A DNA stretch of 64,000 bases, taken from assembly GCA_964626365.1 (NCBI GenBank), contig CAZVDL010000002.1, forward strand, positions 19,966-83,965. Direction: 5' to 3'. Shown piece after piece: positions 6,710-17,337 of the stretch. This stretch comes from an uncultured Nitrososphaerota archaeon (lineage in GTDB: Archaea; Thermoproteota; Methanomethylicia; Nezhaarchaeales; B40-G2). Every line of letters begins with the position of its first letter. Position 1 is the stretch's first letter. A model generated the notes under the pieces. That model saw nothing but the letters and a program-made list of their open reading frames with translations, had not been told where the DNA came from and made no database searches. A program made the translations under genes and the position numbers.

Positions 6710-8002
6710 TTGGCCTCACTCCTCATTAAGCGCTGCTCAGTTATCTTGACACAGGACGAGCGCCGTAGAGTATTGAAGAGGTCTTCAATATACATCGAGG
6801 ACGGAGTGATAGCGGGCGTAGGTAAAGTGGAGTGCGAAGCTGAGACGGTGATCGACGGGGCTGGCAAGATGGCGCTCCCAGCCTTCATTAATGCTCATAC
6901 TCACGCTGCTATGACCCTACTTAGAGGGTACGCCGACGACCTACCCCTAAAACAATGGCTAGAGCAGAAAATATGGCCACTGGAGAGGAAGTTAACCGAG
7001 TATCATTGCTATTGGGGGGCCCTATTAGCCTGCATAGAGATGGCTAAGGCGGGCTGTAGTTGCTTCCTAGACATGTATTTCTACCCGGAGGCTACCGCTG
7101 AGGCTGCCGTCAAGGTAGGGCTTAAAGCCGTGATCTCCTACGGCATGTTTGACTTCAACGACCCCTCCCTAACGGAGCAGCAGCTTGAGGGGGCTAGACG
7201 TTTCCTCGGTAAGGCCTCAGAGCTGAGGATGAAAGGAGTTGAGCCAGCGCTAGGTCCACATGCCCCCTATACGTGTAGCGACCGGTTACTTATGGAGGCT
7301 GCTGAGCTAGCTAGGAGGAACAGGGTCCTGCTACATATACACCTAGCTGAGACGGTTGAGGAGGTGGATGAGTTTAAGAGGCGTTACGGTAGGACCGAGA
7401 TCGAACATCTTGATAGGCTGGGTGTACTTGGACCAGACGTAGTAGCGGCGCATTGTGTTCACCTATCTAGGAGGGATGTAAGGCTCTTAGCTCGTAGAGG
7501 AGTTAAGGTGGTACATTGCCCTGTAAGCAACTTAAAACTAGGCTCAGGCATAGCACCCGTAACCGAGCTACTTAAAGCCAAGGTTACAGTGGCCCTAGGG
7601 ACTGATGGAGCGGCTAGCAACAATTCACTGAGCATGCTGGGGGCTATCAAGCTAGCAGCGCTTCTACAAAAGGCCTTATACAGAGACCCGTCAGCTATCT
7701 CGGCTCAACAGGTACTCGACATGGCTACACTGGGAGGCGCTCTCTCTCTTAACCTACGCTCAGGTAAGTTGGCTGAAGGTTATCGAGGCGACGTAGTCCT
7801 CCTCGACCTTAACAGGCCTAGCTACACCCCTCTCTTCTCGCCTACATCGCATGTCGTGTACGCCTCCGAAGGGACGGAGGCGTACACGCTGGTGGTCGAC
7901 GGCCGCGTCATAGTTAGTAGGGGTAAGGTGGTGTCAATCGATGAAAGATCGGTTATACGTGAGGCCTCTAGGGCGGCTAGGGACCTAGTGGCCCGCCGTT
8001 AA
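6710..8002 (+). CDS. mtaD: Amidohydrolase of the MTA/SAH deaminase (MtaD/DadD) family
   Basis: It has the metal-binding HxH motif (NAHTHAAMT) and the HIHLAET and GTDGAASNN motifs of the ATZ/TRZ-type deaminase family. It sits adjacent to ahcY. Confidence 0.7.
6888..6985. repeat. 98-bp segment 100 % identical (inverted) to 10879..10976 in the paralogous amidohydrolase gene
   Basis: This is a direct comparison of the sequence with the reverse complement of 10879..10976. Confidence 0.85.
7486..7560. repeat. 75-bp segment 100 % identical (inverted) to 10280..10354; a further 31-bp identical patch at 7417..7447 vs 10394..10424
   Basis: This is a direct sequence comparison. Confidence 0.85.
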
Positions 8003-9258
8003 GTGCCTACTCTCCACTCGGAGAGGTATCTTCGCTGCTCCTCAGTTAACTCGTCGATCTCCACTCCCATGGCCTCTAGCTTAAGCCTCGCCACCATTCT
8101 GTCTATCTCGTCCGGGACCTTGTAGACCTTAGGCTGTAGCCCTTCGCTCTTAGCTATGTACTCAGCGCTTAAAGCCTGGTTGCTGAAGCTCATATCCATG
8201 ACCTCGCTTGGGTGGCCCTCAGCGGCAGCTAAGTTTACTAGCCTGCCCTCAGCGATGAGGTAAAGGCGCCTACCATCCCTTAGCCTATACTCGTCCACGT
8301 AATCCCTAACCCTCCTCTTCTCCGCAGCCAGCCTCTCTAAGTCGGGTATGCAGATCTCAACGTTGAAGTGACCACTATTAGCTAGTATGGCCCCGTCTTT
8401 CATGAGCTTCAGGTGCTCTCCTCTAATCACGTTGATGTCCCCGGTGGCGGTTATGAATATGTCCCCTATCTTAGCGGCCTCCTTCATTGACATCACCCTA
8501 AACCCGTCCATGACCGCCTCGAGCGCCCTTAAAGGATCTACCTCAGTCACCACGACGTTTGCTCCCATCCCCCTAGCCCTCATAGCTATGCCCCTGCCGC
8601 ACCAGCCATAGCCCGCCACGACAACGGTCTTCCCAGCTAAGAGTATATTGGTGGCTCTAAGCAGCCCGTCGATGGTGCTCTGTCCCGTGCCGTAGCGGTT
8701 GTCGAAGAGGTACTTCGTGTAGGCATCGTTGACCGCTATGATCGGGTACCTAAGCTCCCCTGCCTCAGCCATCGCCCTAAGCCTAATGACTCCGGTCGTG
8801 GTCTCTTCAGTGCCTCCCTTAACTCCCTTAGCCCCTGCTTCGTGAACCTTAAAGGTTAAGTCGGCGCCGTCGTCCATAGTTATCTGGGGCTTGGCCTCGA
8901 CAACCCTCATTATGCACTCATAATACTCCTCCACGGTTTCACCTCTCCACGCGTAGACGTGTGCTCCCTCAGCCGCTAAGGCGGCCGCTACCTCGTCTTG
9001 GGTCGATAATGGGTTAGAGCCAGCCAAGTATACCTCTGCGCCTCCGGTCATCAACGTCCTGACGAGCACGGCGGTTTCCTTAGTCACATGTAAACAACAA
9101 CCAAGCCTCCAGCCTTCAAGAGGCCTCTCCTTAGCGAAGCGCTCTCTCACCTTCATCAACACAGGCATGAGCCTTTCAGCCCACTCTATGAGGAGCCTTC
9201 CCTTCTCAGCTAACCCTATGTCCTTAACCTTGTAGCTCAAAGCTAAACCCCTGTACAA
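7999..9258 (-). CDS. ahcY: Adenosylhomocysteinase (S-adenosyl-L-homocysteine hydrolase)
   Basis: It has a Rossmann NAD motif ([12 protein letters not shown]) and the conserved SAHH core, at 419 aa. Confidence 0.9.
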
Positions 9259-9302
9259 GGGGGTCTAGGAGGCTAATCAAACTTTCACCTGAGCTTAACT
9301 AC

Positions 9303-9569
9303 TCAAGGGGGTCCGAGATGTTCGAGTAACTCTCTAAGCTTTTTACCCTTAAGGTTAACATCAAGCTTAGCTGATAGCTTGGTAAGGATTAAGTCCTCGA
9401 CCACCTTAGCTAAATCGGCGAATACCTCGCCGAGGCAGAACGCTAAGACGTCTAGCCTTCGTGGCAACTCCTCACGGTTAACATTGAACTTAACCTCGCA
9501 GTAATGATATACAACCTCCTTGACAACCTCGCCGAAGAACTGGAGGCCCTCTTCGATAGCCTCCTTCAC
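9303..9569 (-). CDS. Small conserved hypothetical protein, paralog of ORF 53220..53561
   Basis: It shares the pattern EAIEEgL..FG..VKEVV..YC..K..V.RE.LP..L......CL.E.F with the small protein overlapping the KaiC-like ATPase gene. Confidence 0.4.
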   Translation of the reverse strand: MKEAIEEGLQFFGEVVKEVVYHYCEVKFNVNREELPRRLDVLAFCLGEVFADLAKVVEDLILTKLSAKLDVNLKGKKLRELLEHLGPP

Positions 9570-9810
9570 ACGCTCGGTCTTGCCTTTAAGGGCATCACCT
9601 TTCTATTCACAAAAAATACTCGCTTTAAATATTCATGGACCTGTGACGTGGAGAGGGCGTATTTTAAATCCTTATCGCAACATGTTAAGGACGACCAAAA
9701 GCTATGGATGGCCACCTTAACCGCGGCTATACGTGATAATCGCTCTCATAATGGCTCTCCGTTAAGATCTATGTCCGCCTCTACACGTTAAGGTAGCTTT
9801 CGCGAGGAAA

Positions 9811-11160
9811 TTAGCGTTTAGAGGTCTTTTCCCCAAGCCTTCTCAACAGCTTCTCCTTCTCCTTTTCAGCCTCGACTAACAGGTCCTCTACCTTCATCCT
9901 CTTAAACTCCCCATCCTCAACTATCAACTCCCCGTCCACCAATACATGCCTCACATCCAGTGACCTCGCTGCATAGACAAGGTGGCTTACCTCGTCGTAT
10001 AAGGGGGTTAAGTGGGGCTTCCTAAGCTCCACGGCCACTAAGTCGGCTTTCATCCCGGGCTTGATCTTACCGGTTGTTTGCCCTAAGCCTAGGGCTTCAG
10101 CTCCTCCAGCTGTAGCCATCTCCAAGGCTGTCCACGCTGAAATAGAGGTAGGGTCTCTCGAGACGCCTTTATGTAGAAGGGCCGCCAGCTTGACGGTCTC
10201 GAGTAAGTCTAGTAGGTTGTTGCTACAGGCGCTATCAGTTCCCAGGGCCACGGTCACGCCACTGCTCAAAAGCCTCGGCACGGGTGCTATGCCTGAGCCT
10301 AGTTTTAAGTTGCTTACAGGGCAATGTACCACCTTAACTCCTCTACGAGCTAAGACCTCTACGTCTCCATCTGTTAGCCAGACGCAATGTGCTGCTACTA
10401 CGTCTGGTCCAAGTACACCCAGCCTATCAAGGTACACTGCCACCCCTCCACGTACATCCACCTTAAACGCCTCCTCCACCTTGAAGGCCTCGTCCTCAGT
10501 TTCAGCTAGATGTATATGCCATAGCAGTCTATCGCCTAGCTTAGAGCTCAGCTCGTCGGTTAGCAGCCTCAACTCCTTAAGGTACTCAGGGCCCACCGTG
10601 TAGGGGGCGTGAGGGTCTATGGTCACCTTAACCCTGCCGCCGTAGGAACCATGCCACCTCCTTACCAAGTCCTCGATGGCCTTTAAGTCCTCTTCTCTAC
10701 GCCACTCAAAGCACACGTGTCCCACGAACCCCCTCAGCCCTGCCTCGGCTATCGCCTTAGCCTCGTTGTAGTCGGGGAAGTAGTGGTACATGGTGTTTAT
10801 CGTGGTAACCCCCATCAATGCCGATTCTATGCAGGCTAGTAGAGCCCCCACGTAGATGGACCTGCCGTCCATGCAGGCCTCCAGTGGCCATATTTTCTGC
10901 TCTAGCCATTGTTTTAGGGGTAGGTCGTCGGCGTACCCTCTAAGTAGGGTCATAGCAGCGTGAGTATGAGCATTAACCAGCCCAGGGATTACTGTGCAGG
11001 TGGAGGCGTCAAGTACCTCGTAGCCCCTATACTTCGGAGCCAGCTCCCTTCTAGGACCCACGTCGACTATCTTGTCCTCCTCAATTATTATCAGCGCATC
11101 TTTAATGATCCTGCCTCCGTCCATTGTGACCGCGGAACCGGCTTTAATAGCCAGGTCCAC
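9811..11160 (-). CDS. Second MtaD-like amidohydrolase (paralog of 6710..8002, inverted orientation)
   Basis: It has the same HxH, HIHLAET and GTD motifs. Patches of 98, 75 and 31 bp are 100 % identical at nucleotide level to the paralog (see repeat features). Confidence 0.7.
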   Translation of the reverse strand: MDLAIKAGSAVTMDGGRIIKDALIIIEEDKIVDVGPRRELAPKYRGYEVLDASTCTVIPGLVNAHTHAAMTLLRGYADDLPLKQWLEQKIWPLEACMDGRSIYVGALLACIESALMGVTTINTMYHYFPDYNEAKAIAEAGLRGFVGHVCFEWRREEDLKAIEDLVRRWHGSYGGRVKVTIDPHAPYTVGPEYLKELRLLTDELSSKLGDRLLWHIHLAETEDEAFKVEEAFKVDVRGGVAVYLDRLGVLGPDVVAAHCVWLTDGDVEVLARRGVKVVHCPVSNLKLGSGIAPVPRLLSSGVTVALGTDSACSNNLLDLLETVKLAALLHKGVSRDPTSISAWTALEMATAGGAEALGLGQTTGKIKPGMKADLVAVELRKPHLTPLYDEVSHLVYAARSLDVRHVLVDGELIVEDGEFKRMKVEDLLVEAEKEKEKLLRRLGEKTSKR

Positions 11161-11163
11161 GGC

Positions 11164-12228
11164 CTAAGCCCCCATGTAGCCATTAATATGAGAGGGCTCG
11201 AAGACCTCGGTCCTAAGGGAGTTGAGGGCTAGGTTTAACAGCTTACGCCTCACCTCCACGTGGAGGGTGGGGTACCATATGGGGCTGGCTATGACGAGGG
11301 CCCTCCAGGCGTAGAAGGGCTGAATCACCTTTAATAGCTCCTCGTCCCCTGTCAAATCCAAGTAGTTAGATAGGAAGGTTTTATAGAGCTCCTCGAAGGC
11401 TCCTTCAAGCCTGCCATACCGCCTAAGCGAGTAGAACACGTAGTTAATGGTCATAGCGGCCACGTCGTCCGCCGCTTCTCCCCACTCTCCTCGGCTCCTA
11501 TCCAGGACGGTAAAGTCCACCCCCTCTCTAAATAGGACGTTCCAGGGGTGGAAGTCTCCATGGACCTGGCACAGCCTATAAGCCTTGTCTTTAAGCTTCC
11601 ACCTCCACTCTACGCACAGCTTCTCAAGCTCCATGAGCTCCTCCCTGCTTACGAAGTCTGTTGAGGGAGGGTAGTTGTCTATGATACCCATGATACACTC
11701 GCCGTGCCCAACGAGCTCCCTAATTCTCCTAATGTAGAGCTCAGGCTCGTTTCTCCTAACTGAGTGTATCTCAGCCAGGTAGCTGGACAACGCCCTACAA
11801 CGCTCTCTATCCAGCTGGGTTAATTCACCTCTAGTGGCTATCTCCTCTAGGTCCCGCCAGTACTCTCTTCCTTCTGCGGCCTCAACTAGGAGAAAGAACT
11901 CTTCACATCCCTTCAGGCTAACTATCCCCCTAGGCGTAAAGGCCCCGACGTCCAGAGCCTTAACGTGCCTTGGAAGCTTGGGGTAGGCGAAGTACGCCCA
12001 TATAAGGCTGTGGGCCCTATCGGCTACGTGTTCATGTCCAAAATGGTCAGGCTTCATGGTCTGGAGGACCGCTCTCTTAACCTCTCCTTTAACCTCAAAG
12101 GTTAGGAGGCGGGGGGCGCCGTAGCCGAACTCCTTAACATCCCCCACCTCCCCGCCTAGCCTTTCAGCCTTAATCAGCTTGACAGGGGCCTCGAAAACCC
12201 TCGATAGGTAGGCCTCAAGGTTCTCCAA
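11164..12228 (-). CDS. Phosphotransferase-family kinase (APH/choline-kinase fold; possibly a methylthioribose/sugar kinase)
   Basis: It has the Brenner catalytic motif HGDFHPWNVLF and a DRSRGEWGE metal-binding region. Its position in the SAM-recycling neighbourhood suggests an MtnK-like role, but that is inferred from context only. Confidence 0.5.
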   Translation of the reverse strand: MENLEAYLSRVFEAPVKLIKAERLGGEVGDVKEFGYGAPRLLTFEVKGEVKRAVLQTMKPDHFGHEHVADRAHSLIWAYFAYPKLPRHVKALDVGAFTPRGIVSLKGCEEFFLLVEAAEGREYWRDLEEIATRGELTQLDRERCRALSSYLAEIHSVRRNEPELYIRRIRELVGHGECIMGIIDNYPPSTDFVSREELMELEKLCVEWRWKLKDKAYRLCQVHGDFHPWNVLFREGVDFTVLDRSRGEWGEAADDVAAMTINYVFYSLRRYGRLEGAFEELYKTFLSNYLDLTGDEELLKVIQPFYAWRALVIASPIWYPTLHVEVRRKLLNLALNSLRTEVFEPSHINGYMGA

Positions 12229-12262
12229 GGCACACCCCGTTAATGTCTAGGCTTTCAAGGTA

Positions 12263-12799
12263 TTAAGCTTCAAGGTAGCCTAGCTCCAATAGTTTAGCCT
12301 CTATTTTAGCCGCGGCTTCCTCGGGGCTTTCACGATCGCTCTCCACGACCACCTCTGGGCTTAACGGCTCCTCGTAGGCTCGCTGGAGCCCTGGCAGCTC
12401 GGTGATCTCGCCCTTAAGTGCTCTCCTATAGAGCCCCTTAGGGTCCCTTCTCATAGCCACCTCCAGCGGGCACTTAACGTAGACTTCCACAAACTTAGCG
12501 ATCCTCTTCCTAGCTTCCTCCCTATACTTCCTCTTATTGGCGGTGGCGTCTAGCACCACGTTAACCCCGTTCTTGACTAGGAGCTCGCCTACGTAGGTCA
12601 ACGCTCTATAAAATGAATCTCTTTCCTCCTCCGTGTACCCCTGCCTCGGCATAAGCACCCTTCGAACCTCGTCAGACTCTAGCACCTGGACCTTAACCCC
12701 CCTCTTAGCTAGCCTCTCAGCGAGGACCTTAGCTATCGTGCTCTTACCCGAGGCTGGTATGCCGGTTAACCAGACCGCGAAGCCCTCCACGCAGCCCAC
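12263..12799 (-). CDS. cysC: Adenylyl-sulfate (APS) kinase
   Basis: It has the P-loop GIPASGKSTIA and the RRDPKGLYRRALKGEITELPG motif characteristic of APS kinase. Confidence 0.7.
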   Translation of the reverse strand: MGCVEGFAVWLTGIPASGKSTIAKVLAERLAKRGVKVQVLESDEVRRVLMPRQGYTEEERDSFYRALTYVGELLVKNGVNVVLDATANKRKYREEARKRIAKFVEVYVKCPLEVAMRRDPKGLYRRALKGEITELPGLQRAYEEPLSPEVVVESDRESPEEAAAKIEAKLLELGYLEA

Positions 12800-12941
12800 C
12801 TACCTTAAGGTAGGTGGGTGCTCATCCTAAAAGGCTCCTAGTGGGGTTTTTGGGAGCACACGGCCACCATCCAGGTAGCTTAGTTTCGTCCTCACGTCAG
12901 CCACGCAAGCTTTTAAGTGGACTCCTCCCCTTAAAGGTGGG

Positions 12942-14630
12942 ATGGCTGAAAGATTAGTGGTGACGGCAGCCCTACCATACGCGAACGGGGACCTCCATAT
13001 AGGGCATGCCATAAGCACATACATCCCCGCCGACATATATGCCAGGTTTAAGAGGCTACAGGGCTGCGACGTAGTGTTTGCTTGTGGCAGCGACGACCAC
13101 GGCACGCCCATAGAGGTCTCTGCGCTAAAGGTGGGTAGGGCGCCGCTAGAGCACGCCAGGTACTACCATGACAGGCACCTAGAGGACTTTAAGCGTCTCA
13201 ACATTTCCTTTGACAACTACTACTACACCCATAGCGAGGAGAACCGTGAGTTAACTGAGGAATTCCTGCTTAAGGCTATGGAGGGGGGCTACATCTACGT
13301 AAAGGAGGTGGAGCAATACTACTGTGAGAGAGACGGGAAGTTTCTCCCCGACCGCTTTGTGGTGGGTACCTGTCCATACTGTGGGGCTGAAAATCAGTTC
13401 AGTGACCTATGTGAAAGATGCGGTAGGGTCATAGAGCCGGGCAAAATACTAAACCCTAAGTGTGCTATCTGTGGCTCCACCCCCATTAGGCGTAAATCAA
13501 AGCATTTCTTCTTCAAATTGAGTGCCTTTGCTAAGCAGCTCGAGGAGTGGCTTTCATCCTCTCCCCCTCGAGACTTTCCGAGGGAGATAGTTAACTACGT
13601 GTTAAACTGGATTAGGTCAGGCTTAGAGGACTGGGATATTACTAGGGAGGACTATTGGGGGTTTAAGCTGCCCTTTAAGGAGGCTGCCGACAACCAGTAC
13701 GTGTACGTATGGTGGGACGCCCCGATAGGTTACATAGCCTCCACGGTCAACTACTGCCGTAAGGCGGGTAAAGACTGGGAGGCTTACTGGAAGGATCCAT
13801 CAGCTAAGAGGGTCCACTTTATAGGTAAGGACATAGCCTACCATCACTTCATCTTCTGGCCTGCCATGCTGCTTGCTGTAGGCTATCCCTTACCCTCAAA
13901 GTATGTGGTCAACGGCTACCTAACCTTAGAGGGGGAGAAGATGTCGAAGAGCAGGGGCTGGTTAATACCTTTAAAGTATATACTTTATAGGTACCCTGCC
14001 GACTATCTTAGGTTCTACGCGGCCTTCAAAGCCCCCAACTCGACTAGGGACAGCGACTTCAGTTTCAAGGAGTTTCAACGCAAAGTTAACGCCGAACTTG
14101 CCGATAACATAGGCAACTACGCTCATCGAGTATTAACCCTAATCCATAGGCTTCACGGTGGGGTGGTCCCAGAGCCTAAGGACATGGACGAGGAGGATGA
14201 GGGCTTTAAGGCCTTCATAGAGTCCCTCCCTAAAACCTTCGAGGAGCTCTACGAGGAGGCTGACTTCACCAGGGTGGGAGACCGTCTACTACACTCCTTC
14301 GCTGAGGCCAATAGGTACCTTAACGTGAAGGAGCCGTGGAGGCGGGGCAGGGAAGATCCTTCGCTGGCCGCTACCACTATGTACCTAAGTGTAAACTTCT
14401 TGAGGGACGCCATGATCATCATGTACCCTATAACCCCCAGCATATCTAGCCAGGTGCTCTCCTTCATCTACGTCGAGGGCGAGCCTGAGCTAAGCTGGGG
14501 CAGCCTCGGCAAGTTTGTCGTTAAGCCTGGCACTGTGATAGCTAAGCCTAAGCCCGTGGTGAAGAAGATAGGCGACGAGGAGATAGAGGAGGACTTGGAG
14601 AGGCTTAAGAGAGGCTTCGTGGAGGAGTAA
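12942..14630 (+). CDS. metG: Methionyl-tRNA synthetase
   Basis: It has HIGH (HIGHAIS), KMSKS (KMSKS) and a zinc knuckle (CPYCG...CERCG). Confidence 0.9.
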   Translation: MAERLVVTAALPYANGDLHIGHAISTYIPADIYARFKRLQGCDVVFACGSDDHGTPIEVSALKVGRAPLEHARYYHDRHLEDFKRLNISFDNYYYTHSEENRELTEEFLLKAMEGGYIYVKEVEQYYCERDGKFLPDRFVVGTCPYCGAENQFSDLCERCGRVIEPGKILNPKCAICGSTPIRRKSKHFFFKLSAFAKQLEEWLSSSPPRDFPREIVNYVLNWIRSGLEDWDITREDYWGFKLPFKEAADNQYVYVWWDAPIGYIASTVNYCRKAGKDWEAYWKDPSAKRVHFIGKDIAYHHFIFWPAMLLAVGYPLPSKYVVNGYLTLEGEKMSKSRGWLIPLKYILYRYPADYLRFYAAFKAPNSTRDSDFSFKEFQRKVNAELADNIGNYAHRVLTLIHRLHGGVVPEPKDMDEEDEGFKAFIESLPKTFEELYEEADFTRVGDRLLHSFAEANRYLNVKEPWRRGREDPSLAATTMYLSVNFLRDAMIIMYPITPSISSQVLSFIYVEGEPELSWGSLGKFVVKPGTVIAKPKPVVKKIGDEEIEEDLERLKRGFVEE

Positions 14631-17312: not shown

Positions 17313-17337
17313 CCTTCACCCCTCGAACTACTACCTA

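Follow-up and report, generated by a model that had tools for sequence, protein, structure and literature searches.

Signs of recurrent, segment-restricted gene conversion between two inverted amidohydrolase paralogs around ahcY in a Nezhaarchaeales archaeon

Introduction

Paralogous genes within one genome may exchange sequence by gene conversion, and a few archaeal cases are described in which this has gone on for a long time. The closest analogue of the case treated here is the mtrA-1/mtrA-2 pair of Methanococcales and Methanomicrobiales, in which the MtrA domain is homogenised by conversion that has continued over the whole history of these lineages (Wang et al. 2015, PMC4632066). This text concerns a 64,000-nucleotide stretch of DNA (the window) from an uncultured Nitrososphaerota archaeon of the order Nezhaarchaeales (contig CAZVDL010000002.1, positions 19,966 to 83,965), in which two MtaD-like amidohydrolase genes, named A and B, lie in inverted orientation on either side of ahcY, the gene for S-adenosylhomocysteine (SAH) hydrolase. 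Like the mtrA genes, A and B are ancient, nearby archaeal paralogs in which part of the gene is homogenised and the rest is different. The mtrA genes, however, stand in tandem in one operon of euryarchaeal methanogens, with a whole domain homogenised, whereas A and B are inverted around another gene, belong to the Thermoproteota, have 41–47% protein identity and are homogenised in islands of 38–220 nt only.

A wider catalogue of concerted evolution that is both recurrent and long-lasting comprises 26 genes, including tuf, and recurrent conversion is considered there to be ongoing (Wang & Chen 2018, PMC6053082). Seven of these genes are archaeal, every one of them found in methanogens of the Euryarchaeota, and the list contains no amidohydrolase or deaminase; for the most part the genes code for complex subunits, and homogenisation extends over the greater part of their length. 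As in those cases, the homogenised parts of A and B are closer between paralogs within a species than between orthologues, at synonymous and non-synonymous sites, a likeness that the catalogue documents in many species. Unlike in those cases, about 85% of the A and B genes groups by orthology, and whole-gene trees would miss the pattern.

On the side of mechanism, recombination in Sulfolobus acidocaldarius, a hyperthermophile without MutS and MutL, transfers multiple short intervals, and the tracts are often broken by recipient markers 20–30 nt away (Mao & Grogan 2012, PMC3367456). Two neighbouring tracts of A and B, of 38 and 76 nt with an unconverted gap of 38 nt between them, fit this short-patch mode, although the S. 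acidocaldarius work dealt with transformation by marked pyrE DNA and not with ectopic exchange between chromosomal paralogs.

Recurrent conversion has reportedly also been described, by Archibald and Roger in about 2002, between the paralogous subunits of the archaeal chaperonin (thermosome), where it is said to be concentrated in functionally conserved parts. The thermosome paralogs differ from A and B in that they are subunits of one hetero-oligomeric complex and do not form an inverted pair around a third gene.

Identical tracts in diverged genes

The genes and the segments in question are the following, with positions counted from the first letter of the window.

6710..8002, + strand: gene A, A-type MtaD/DadD-like amidohydrolase, an open reading frame (ORF) of 430 amino acids (aa) from a TTG
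7999..9258, − strand: ahcY, between A and B (TIGR00936, 674 bits, above cut-off)
9811..11160, − strand: gene B, B-type MtaD/DadD-like amidohydrolase, an ORF of 449 aa and the first gene of a deaminase-to-ahcY unit
6888..6985, + strand: tract 1, copy in A, 98 nt (A aa 60–92), 100% identical to the reverse complement of 10879..10976
10879..10976, − strand: tract 1, copy in B, perfect run of 98 nt
7409..7446, + strand: tract 2, copy in A, 38 nt, perfect against 10394..10431
10394..10431, − strand: tract 2, copy in B, perfect run of 38 nt
7485..7560, + strand: tract 3, copy in A, 76 nt, perfect against 10280..10355
10280..10355, − strand: tract 3, copy in B, perfect run of 76 nt
7447..7484 (partner 10356..10393), + strand: unconverted gap between tracts 2 and 3, 38 nt, 18 of the 38 positions different

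The perfect runs were defined by an inverted-repeat search followed by base-by-base extension and codon alignment of A against B. The search itself returned 98 nt at 100% (6888–6985 / 10879–10976) and 152 nt at 88% (7409–7560 / 10280–10431). An initial annotation of this DNA had listed three identical patches, of which the one of 98 bp proved exact. The other two were misplaced at their ends: the patch given as 75 bp is a run of 76 nt, and the one given as 31 bp is a run of 38 nt that begins 8 nt earlier, at 7409, and stops before 7447, which is a mismatch. The differences in the gap between tracts 2 and 3 include synonymous ones at conserved residues; at a related locus, L084 (loci used for comparison carry L numbers), the matching interval falls within a 220-nt tract.

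All three tracts are in frame and at homologous codons of the two genes. Tract 1 covers H63/H65, W83 and E92 of A, which align to His55/His57, Trp75 and Glu84 of Tm0936 (structures 1P1M/2PLM). Neither the catalytic His248 nor the metal ligand Asp299 is part of tracts 2 and 3 of the window, which occupy the interval between the two, and H211, E214, H248 and D299 are all outside the window tracts; H248 and D299 are inside the 220-nt tract of L084. The idea that the patches mark functional sites thus fits the HxH metal site, in tract 1, and fails in the window for the active-site residues of the C-terminal part.

The rest of the two genes is strongly diverged, as the initial annotation had stated. 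The proteins share 200 of 423 aligned residues (47%), and outside the tracts the codon alignment gives 48% nucleotide identity, with 36% at third positions. Where a degenerate amino acid is conserved between the copies, the same codon is used in 63 of 65 cases inside the tracts and in 55 of 130 outside (Fisher p = 1.3e-15). The proportion of synonymous differences (pS, Nei-Gojobori) amounts to 0.00 for tract 1, to 0.03 for tracts 2 and 3 together and elsewhere to 0.66, which is close to saturation and corresponds to a synonymous divergence (dS) of about 1.6; dS is thus not uniform along the genes, and third-position identity is in excess inside the tracts. In 20,000 permutations, in which synonymous status alone was shuffled and the pattern of amino-acid conservation was kept fixed, no longest run was above 74 nt and all second-longest runs stayed below 75 nt, so that the observed runs of 98 and 76 nt were never matched. 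The identity of the tracts is far beyond what chance or protein constraint would produce.

Other assemblies of the species

The species, named ‘Thermoprotei archaeon’ by NCBI (RLF14627.1), is represented by three further assemblies that allow a base-by-base comparison with the window.

L081, GCA_003650875.1: 5 single-nucleotide polymorphisms (SNPs) against the window in 5.2 kb
L082, ERZ27227321, contig of 157 kb: 7 SNPs in 17.3 kb, and a length difference of one base, placed near 17318
L172, ERZ584659, contig of 132 kb: 4 SNPs against the window in 11.3 kb

The tracts and their orientation are alike in all four, and two more contigs, of 181 kb and 27 kb, encode proteins collinear with A and B. 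Within tract 3, site 7498 (+) carries an A in the window, in agreement with copy B, and a G in L081, L082 and L172, so that the perfect run of tract 3 is 76 nt in the window and 62 nt in the three others; at its edge, tract 3 varies within the population.

Since all the data are metagenome assemblies, it could be argued that the identity is an artefact of assembly or consensus calling, in which reads of the two paralogs were merged in their most similar parts. Repeats do trouble the assemblers here, as the contigs of three related metagenome-assembled genomes (MAGs) stop inside gene B. Against such an artefact, the same tracts appear in four assemblies of the species, from different projects and with contig naming of both the SPAdes type and the MEGAHIT k141 type, and the tracts are shorter than k = 141. 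In addition, at one and the same position the tract sequence differs from lineage to lineage, and sister strains carry co-varying changes in both copies. The probability left to an artefact is negligible.

The three interrupted contigs belong to different lineages, and each breaks at about aa 355–365 of gene B (L169 at contig end 9066, L170 at 9077, L173 at 5681), which is where the long C-terminal A/B tract of L084 ends. This coincidence suggests that the breaks are repeat-induced and hence that long tracts are present there too; the end of the L173 contig has no overlap of at least 15 nt with its own gene A.

Recurrence in related lineages

The layout A(+)-ahcY(−)-B(−) is found in at least six related Nezhaarchaeales-like lineages, with the recurring order eIF2-beta / A(+) / ahcY(−) / B(−) / APH-family kinase / APS kinase.

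L084 and its sister strain L171, from JGI hot-spring-type metagenomes: layout present
L085–L088, Nezhaarchaeales MAGs: layout present
L173: layout present
L083, L169 and L170: layout partial, on incomplete contigs

Between these lineages ahcY is 72–83% identical, eIF2-beta 65–87% and the kinase 56–80%. Both complete genes are on one contig in three species-level lineages, and these, with two strain pairs, make up the small sample from which recurrence is judged. In each of the three, A and B share perfect runs within the genome: those of L084 measure 220, 118 and 104 nt, and that of L085–87 measures 98 nt at the position homologous to tract 1 of the window. In this group of heat-loving archaea some 100–440 nt are thus kept identical between A and B of one genome. 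Tract 1 is 97–100% identical between the copies within genomes and only 73–88% identical between genomes, where pS is 0.56–0.91 and its non-synonymous counterpart pN is 0.01–0.10. The N-terminal, middle and C-terminal segments behave in the opposite manner, with 52–69% identity between A genes, 52–75% between B genes and only 41–49% between A and B of one genome. Separate phylogenies of the segments, which the initial annotation had proposed as a check, are in open conflict: in neighbour-joining trees the copies of tract 1 cluster by genome, with 100% bootstrap in each of the three lineages, and the other parts, which amount to about 85% of the gene, cluster by gene, also with 100%.

The two strains L084 and L171, which are about 98% identical, add a finer scale. 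At two sites, both inside tracts, the two copies have changed together (aa 71, T/T against C/C; aa 254, A/A against G/G), and other differences between the strains mark edges of the tracts. Conversion appears to be ongoing, because sister strains show these co-varying sites and because the edge of tract 3 is polymorphic in the window's species. Within the small sample, recurrence in the sense of the catalogue of long-lasting concerted evolution (PMC6053082) is found for A and B.

The initial annotation had read the mosaic as a sign of recent gene conversion and had named recurrent homogenisation of functionally critical segments as the alternative. Conversion as such is upheld by the synonymous contrast, the permutations and the conflict of trees. 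A single recent event confined to the window genome would agree with the absence of any difference over 98 + 76 + 38 nt, which means that the last event in this lineage was recent. Such an event is nevertheless very improbable: tract 1 is identical within L084, L171 and L085–87 as well, in each with a sequence of its own, co-varying sites separate the sister strains L084 and L171, and the tracts, being mosaics of A-type and B-type residues (see below), need several events in both directions. The recurrence contained in the alternative is borne out by the three lineages and by the co-varying sites; the selective role that it assigned to the segments is not.

Perfect third-position identity would also be predicted if the tracts contained an embedded element, such as an RNA motif or a binding site, under purifying selection at the nucleotide level. 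The sequence of the tracts, though, differs between lineages at most synonymous sites (pS 0.56–0.91, as given above), and a scan against Rfam (E <= 1) gave one sub-threshold chance match only, of 23.8 bits against a gathering score of 65. An embedded RNA element was dropped as a candidate on these two grounds, and element conservation in general is hardly credible. Because the tracts are identical within genomes and synonymously saturated between them, concerted evolution by recurrent conversion accounts for the pattern and conservation of an element does not.

Taken with a probability of about 0.88, the preferred reading is recurrent, segment-restricted gene conversion (concerted evolution) between A and B, which is still going on. 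Some points weigh against this reading. The sequences are all consensuses of metagenome-assembled populations, in which no recombination event is seen directly, and the species-level lineages with A and B both complete on a single contig number only three. The polymorphism at 7498 could have arisen by a new mutation as well as by a new conversion. As regards the position of the tracts, the second most conserved window of the family (aa 292–321) is unconverted in the window genome, so that baseline identity is not a full predictor, and selection on the module could account, as well as homology limitation, for the nearly equal boundaries that tract 1 has in the three lineages (98, 104 and 98 nt).

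Direction and placement of the tracts

To follow the direction of conversion, diagnostic residues were scored against two sets of proteins of other genomes, one A-type and one B-type, with more than 100 in each. Control segments were unambiguous, the middle region scoring ±220–300 bits for its own type. The tracts are hybrids of the two types: HTH, HCP and EQKIW are A-type, and AAM..LL..DDL and SNL are B-type. The direction also varies by lineage, since both copies of L085 show the B-type EKWVW at a place that is occupied by the A-type EQKIW in the window and in L084. The hybrid residues argue that conversion has run both ways over time. A single direction, with A as donor and B as recipient, had first been suggested by the nearest A orthologue and was dropped, as the tracts are hybrid and the direction depends on the lineage.

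The placement of the tracts follows, in large part, the similarity of the two families. When A-type proteins are compared with B-type ones, all taken from genomes that lack the pair, the most conserved 30-aa window, with an identity of 0.67 (mean 0.41), is aa 56–85, which corresponds to tract 1; tract 3 scores 0.61 and the middle region 0.30. Homology limitation is the simplest model for where the tracts lie, and the boundaries would on this basis be set by it instead of by selection.

A rather less likely account, to which a minor share of the probability is given, is adaptive homogenisation, in which selection keeps an identical module for adenosine and metal binding in both enzymes while the loops that bind the 5'-substituent stay different; conversion would then be the mechanism and selection the cause of its persistence. 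Tract 1 does span exactly the residues aligned to His55/His57, Trp75 and Glu84 of Tm0936, its boundaries are almost equal in the three lineages, and its protein sequence changes very slowly, as the pN values show. The positions of Arg136 and Arg148 of Tm0936, moreover, are inside the unconverted middle region, where A and B differ. However, protein-level selection does not need identical codons, tract 1 is the most conserved window of the family even where conversion is not possible, so that homology limitation suffices, and the extent of the C-terminal tracts varies widely (none in L085, 38 + 76 nt in the window, 220 + 118 nt in L084). Selection for a shared adenosine-binding module may contribute to the conversion preferred here.

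The proposed course of events is as follows. A and B would have been kept inverted, 3–4 kb apart, around ahcY in the Nezhaarchaeales-like lineage, and homologous recombination between the copies would repeatedly give rise to short heteroduplexes. These would be resolved as non-reciprocal, short-patch and sometimes discontinuous conversion in either direction, limited to the stretches where the A and B families are most alike. The main stretch would be tract 1, with the HxH metal site at one end and the ribose-binding Glu at the other, and a second one, comprising tracts 2 and 3, would be the beta-7 region that lies between the catalytic His and the metal-binding Asp. In a stretch already homogenised, perfect identity would favour the next event, and the diverged flanks would stop the extension of the heteroduplex; the expected outcome is self-sustaining islands of concerted evolution within genes that otherwise evolve independently. 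By analogy with the archaeal work cited above, the machinery is probably RadA-type homologous recombination with short-patch mismatch processing.

Possible inversion of the ahcY segment

Identical blocks in inverted orientation could also act as crossover sites, and the initial annotation had suggested that the ~3 kb between them might invert. In the fullest form of this idea the blocks allow a reversible inversion of the ahcY segment that makes reciprocal, in-frame chimeric deaminases. Inverted repeats do flank the segment, and the tracts are in frame in A as well as in B; judged by the coordinates, a crossover in them would produce A5'-B3' and B5'-A3' fusions and would still leave a deaminase in front of ahcY on the same strand. 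Against it stands the uniformity of the arrangement: one orientation only is found in the window, L081, L082, L172 and the 181-kb and 27-kb contigs, and likewise in L084, L171, L085–88 and L173, and the left-hand gene is A-type in its N-terminal, middle and C-terminal segments in every lineage. No inversion isomer was found in the assemblies compared or in the contigs carrying the exact ahcY, a search that covered assembled sequence, and no A/B chimeric protein was found among the members of the 90% protein clusters. Nor does any recombinase family occur among the called genes within ±8 kb, which encode translation factors, kinases, methionyl-tRNA synthetase (MetRS), radical-SAM (S-adenosylmethionine) enzymes and topoisomerase VI. 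With a single orientation in at least five contigs of the species and in all related lineages, and no chimeras, the suggested inversion finds no support, and its use as a reversible system is very unlikely.

A related and similarly unlikely idea is that the islands are a maintained device, in which a rare crossover inverts the ahcY segment and swaps promoter and N-terminus between the two deaminases, as a low-frequency switch or a means of module shuffling that conversion keeps usable. If this were true, neither reading frame would be broken, and ahcY would continue to have a deaminase ahead of it.

A and B as ancient paralogs

A scan anchored on ahcY, with one genome per species, returned 80 related loci, the closest ahcY being 75–76% identical (Bathyarchaeia MAGs). 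In 27 of the 80, mostly from Bathyarchaeia MAGs, the gene directly upstream of ahcY, in the same orientation, codes for a B-type deaminase; these deaminases are 49–59% identical to B and about 35% identical to A. An A-type gene is present in none of the 80 loci. Orthologues of A (P0002–P0006) are 55–65% identical to it, and further A-type relatives are broadly present in other archaea. The separate sets of orthologues argue that A and B are ancient paralogs, each with its own orthologues across Archaea, and not the result of a recent duplication; deaminase B followed by ahcY appears to be a widespread unit. A metagenome scan with the alignment of A orthologues, using patterns derived from tract 1 itself, gave mostly distant homologues (38–47%) among the matches listed; L104, with 62% and an incomplete gene, was the sole close match among them and served as outgroup.

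Some observations on related loci may be added. In another lineage, L174 (7086..12639) has the same syntenic block (eIF2-beta, DUF424, eIF-1A, RIO1 ... MetRS) with no A-type gene; it contains a purine-nucleoside-phosphorylase gene and B(+) followed by ahcY(+), so that the orientation of the unit relative to its flanks is opposite to that in the window. Two unrelated metagenome contigs, L122 (5673..8293) and L139 (5655..8296), each have two deaminase paralogs in tandem (direct) arrangement, with an overall identity of 79% and 86% respectively and with exact runs of 486 nt in the former and of 85, 81, 76 and 56 nt in the latter; seven other tandem deaminase pairs among the matches listed have no exact runs in common. 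Conversion or recent duplication in the deaminase family thus seems to extend beyond the lineage of the window.

Gene assignments and the ahcY pathway

The naming of the two genes as amidohydrolases and of the gene between them as ahcY was confirmed by profile searches, which place A and B in Amidohydro_1 (PF01979; 250 bits for A, 228 for B), in the MtaD/DadD/TRZ-ATZ group, and ahcY in TIGR00936. The top NCBIfam model is PRK06038, with 501 bits for A and 436 for B under a cut-off of 609; the MtaD model PRK15493 (267 and 265 bits, cut-off 779) and the DadD model PRK07228 (333 and 362 bits, cut-off 522) likewise stay below their thresholds. Because the equivalog models score below their curated cut-offs, the label ‘MtaD-like’ is justified for both genes, and an assignment of the exact substrate is not.

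In the alignment to 1P1M, H63, H65, H211, E214, H248 and D299 of A correspond to His55, His57, His200, Glu203, His228 and Asp279 of Tm0936, and gene B carries the same HxH, His and Asp metal-ligand motifs and HxxE/His catalytic motifs. The catalytic, metal-binding and adenosine-side roles given here to these residues are those reported for the Tm0936 residues to which they align. Arg136 and Arg148 of Tm0936, which according to Hermann et al. in 2007 reportedly bind the carboxylate of homocysteine, are not kept: they correspond to Tyr144 and Leu154 in A and to a His and a 4-residue deletion in B.

The nucleobase motif of ahcY bears on the substrate. HxTxE is linked to a preference for SAH and HxExK to a preference for S-inosylhomocysteine (SIH), and homologues of DadD have been reported in bacteria and Euryarchaeota only (PMC10978960). 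In the window, L084, L171, L085 and L173, ahcY has HVTKE (HxTxE). A pathway of DadD and S-inosylhomocysteine hydrolase (SIHH), which a deaminase-ahcY operon would suggest, was dropped on this account, as the motif is HxTxE and not HxExK. Because the ahcY genes examined carry the SAH-type motif, the linked deaminase may act on adenosine, 5'-methylthioadenosine (MTA) or 5'-deoxyadenosine and would then not feed an SIH hydrolase.

Several details of the layout complete the description. The start of A differs among annotations (6710, 6746 or 6773, that is 430, 418 or 409 aa, the later ones 12 or 21 codons downstream); the true start is uncertain, and the tracts are unaffected either way. A perfect 14-nt palindrome with a 6-nt spacer (CGTGTACGCCTCCG / CGGAGGCGTACACG) lies at 7855..7888, within the coding sequence of A. 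Genes A and ahcY are convergent, with stop codons that overlap by 4 nt (7999..8002), and the same 4-nt overlap is seen in L084 (9308..9311) and L173 (4176..4179). The spacer between B and ahcY in the window measures 552 nt (9259..9810), is species-specific and contains one small ORF:

9303..9569, − strand: ORF of 88 aa between B and ahcY, from an ORF call

This ORF has no match in Pfam or NCBIfam and no homologue in the related loci. The same gap is 4–6 nt in L084 and L173, and L085 has a different spacer of 957 nt with other small ORFs; the spacers look like lineage-specific insertions at one shared intergenic point.

Many genes related to methionine and SAM surround the locus (11164..14630 of the window and 1849..7997 of L082). 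Adjoining B is an APH-family kinase, with a match of 36 bits only, whose Pfam clan also includes the 5-methylthioribose kinase family; other neighbours encode an APS-kinase-like protein, MetRS, a MiaB-type radical-SAM methylthiotransferase, a second radical-SAM protein and ThiS. This neighbourhood suggests a possible cluster for handling the by-products of SAM.

Significance of island-type conversion

The A/B pair is a new example of a known process and brings no new mechanism; what is new is its place in a Thermoproteota lineage, the inverted arrangement around a third gene, the much greater divergence of the paralogs and the limitation of homogenisation to islands. There are practical consequences. 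The tracts raise the similarity of A and B to 47%, against about 35–40% in unconverted comparisons, so that the assignment of orthology can be misled, and they may cause MAG contigs to end within gene B.

Among prokaryotes, concerted evolution that lasts for long is considered very rare. With A/B a case is added that belongs to the Thermoproteota and concerns a metabolic enzyme, not the subunit of a complex. Island-type conversion may be under-counted, because whole-gene phylogenetic screens are blind to such cases. The locus can be seen as a natural experiment on the homology needs of archaeal recombination and on the question of which enzyme parts paralogs with presumably different substrates can have in common.

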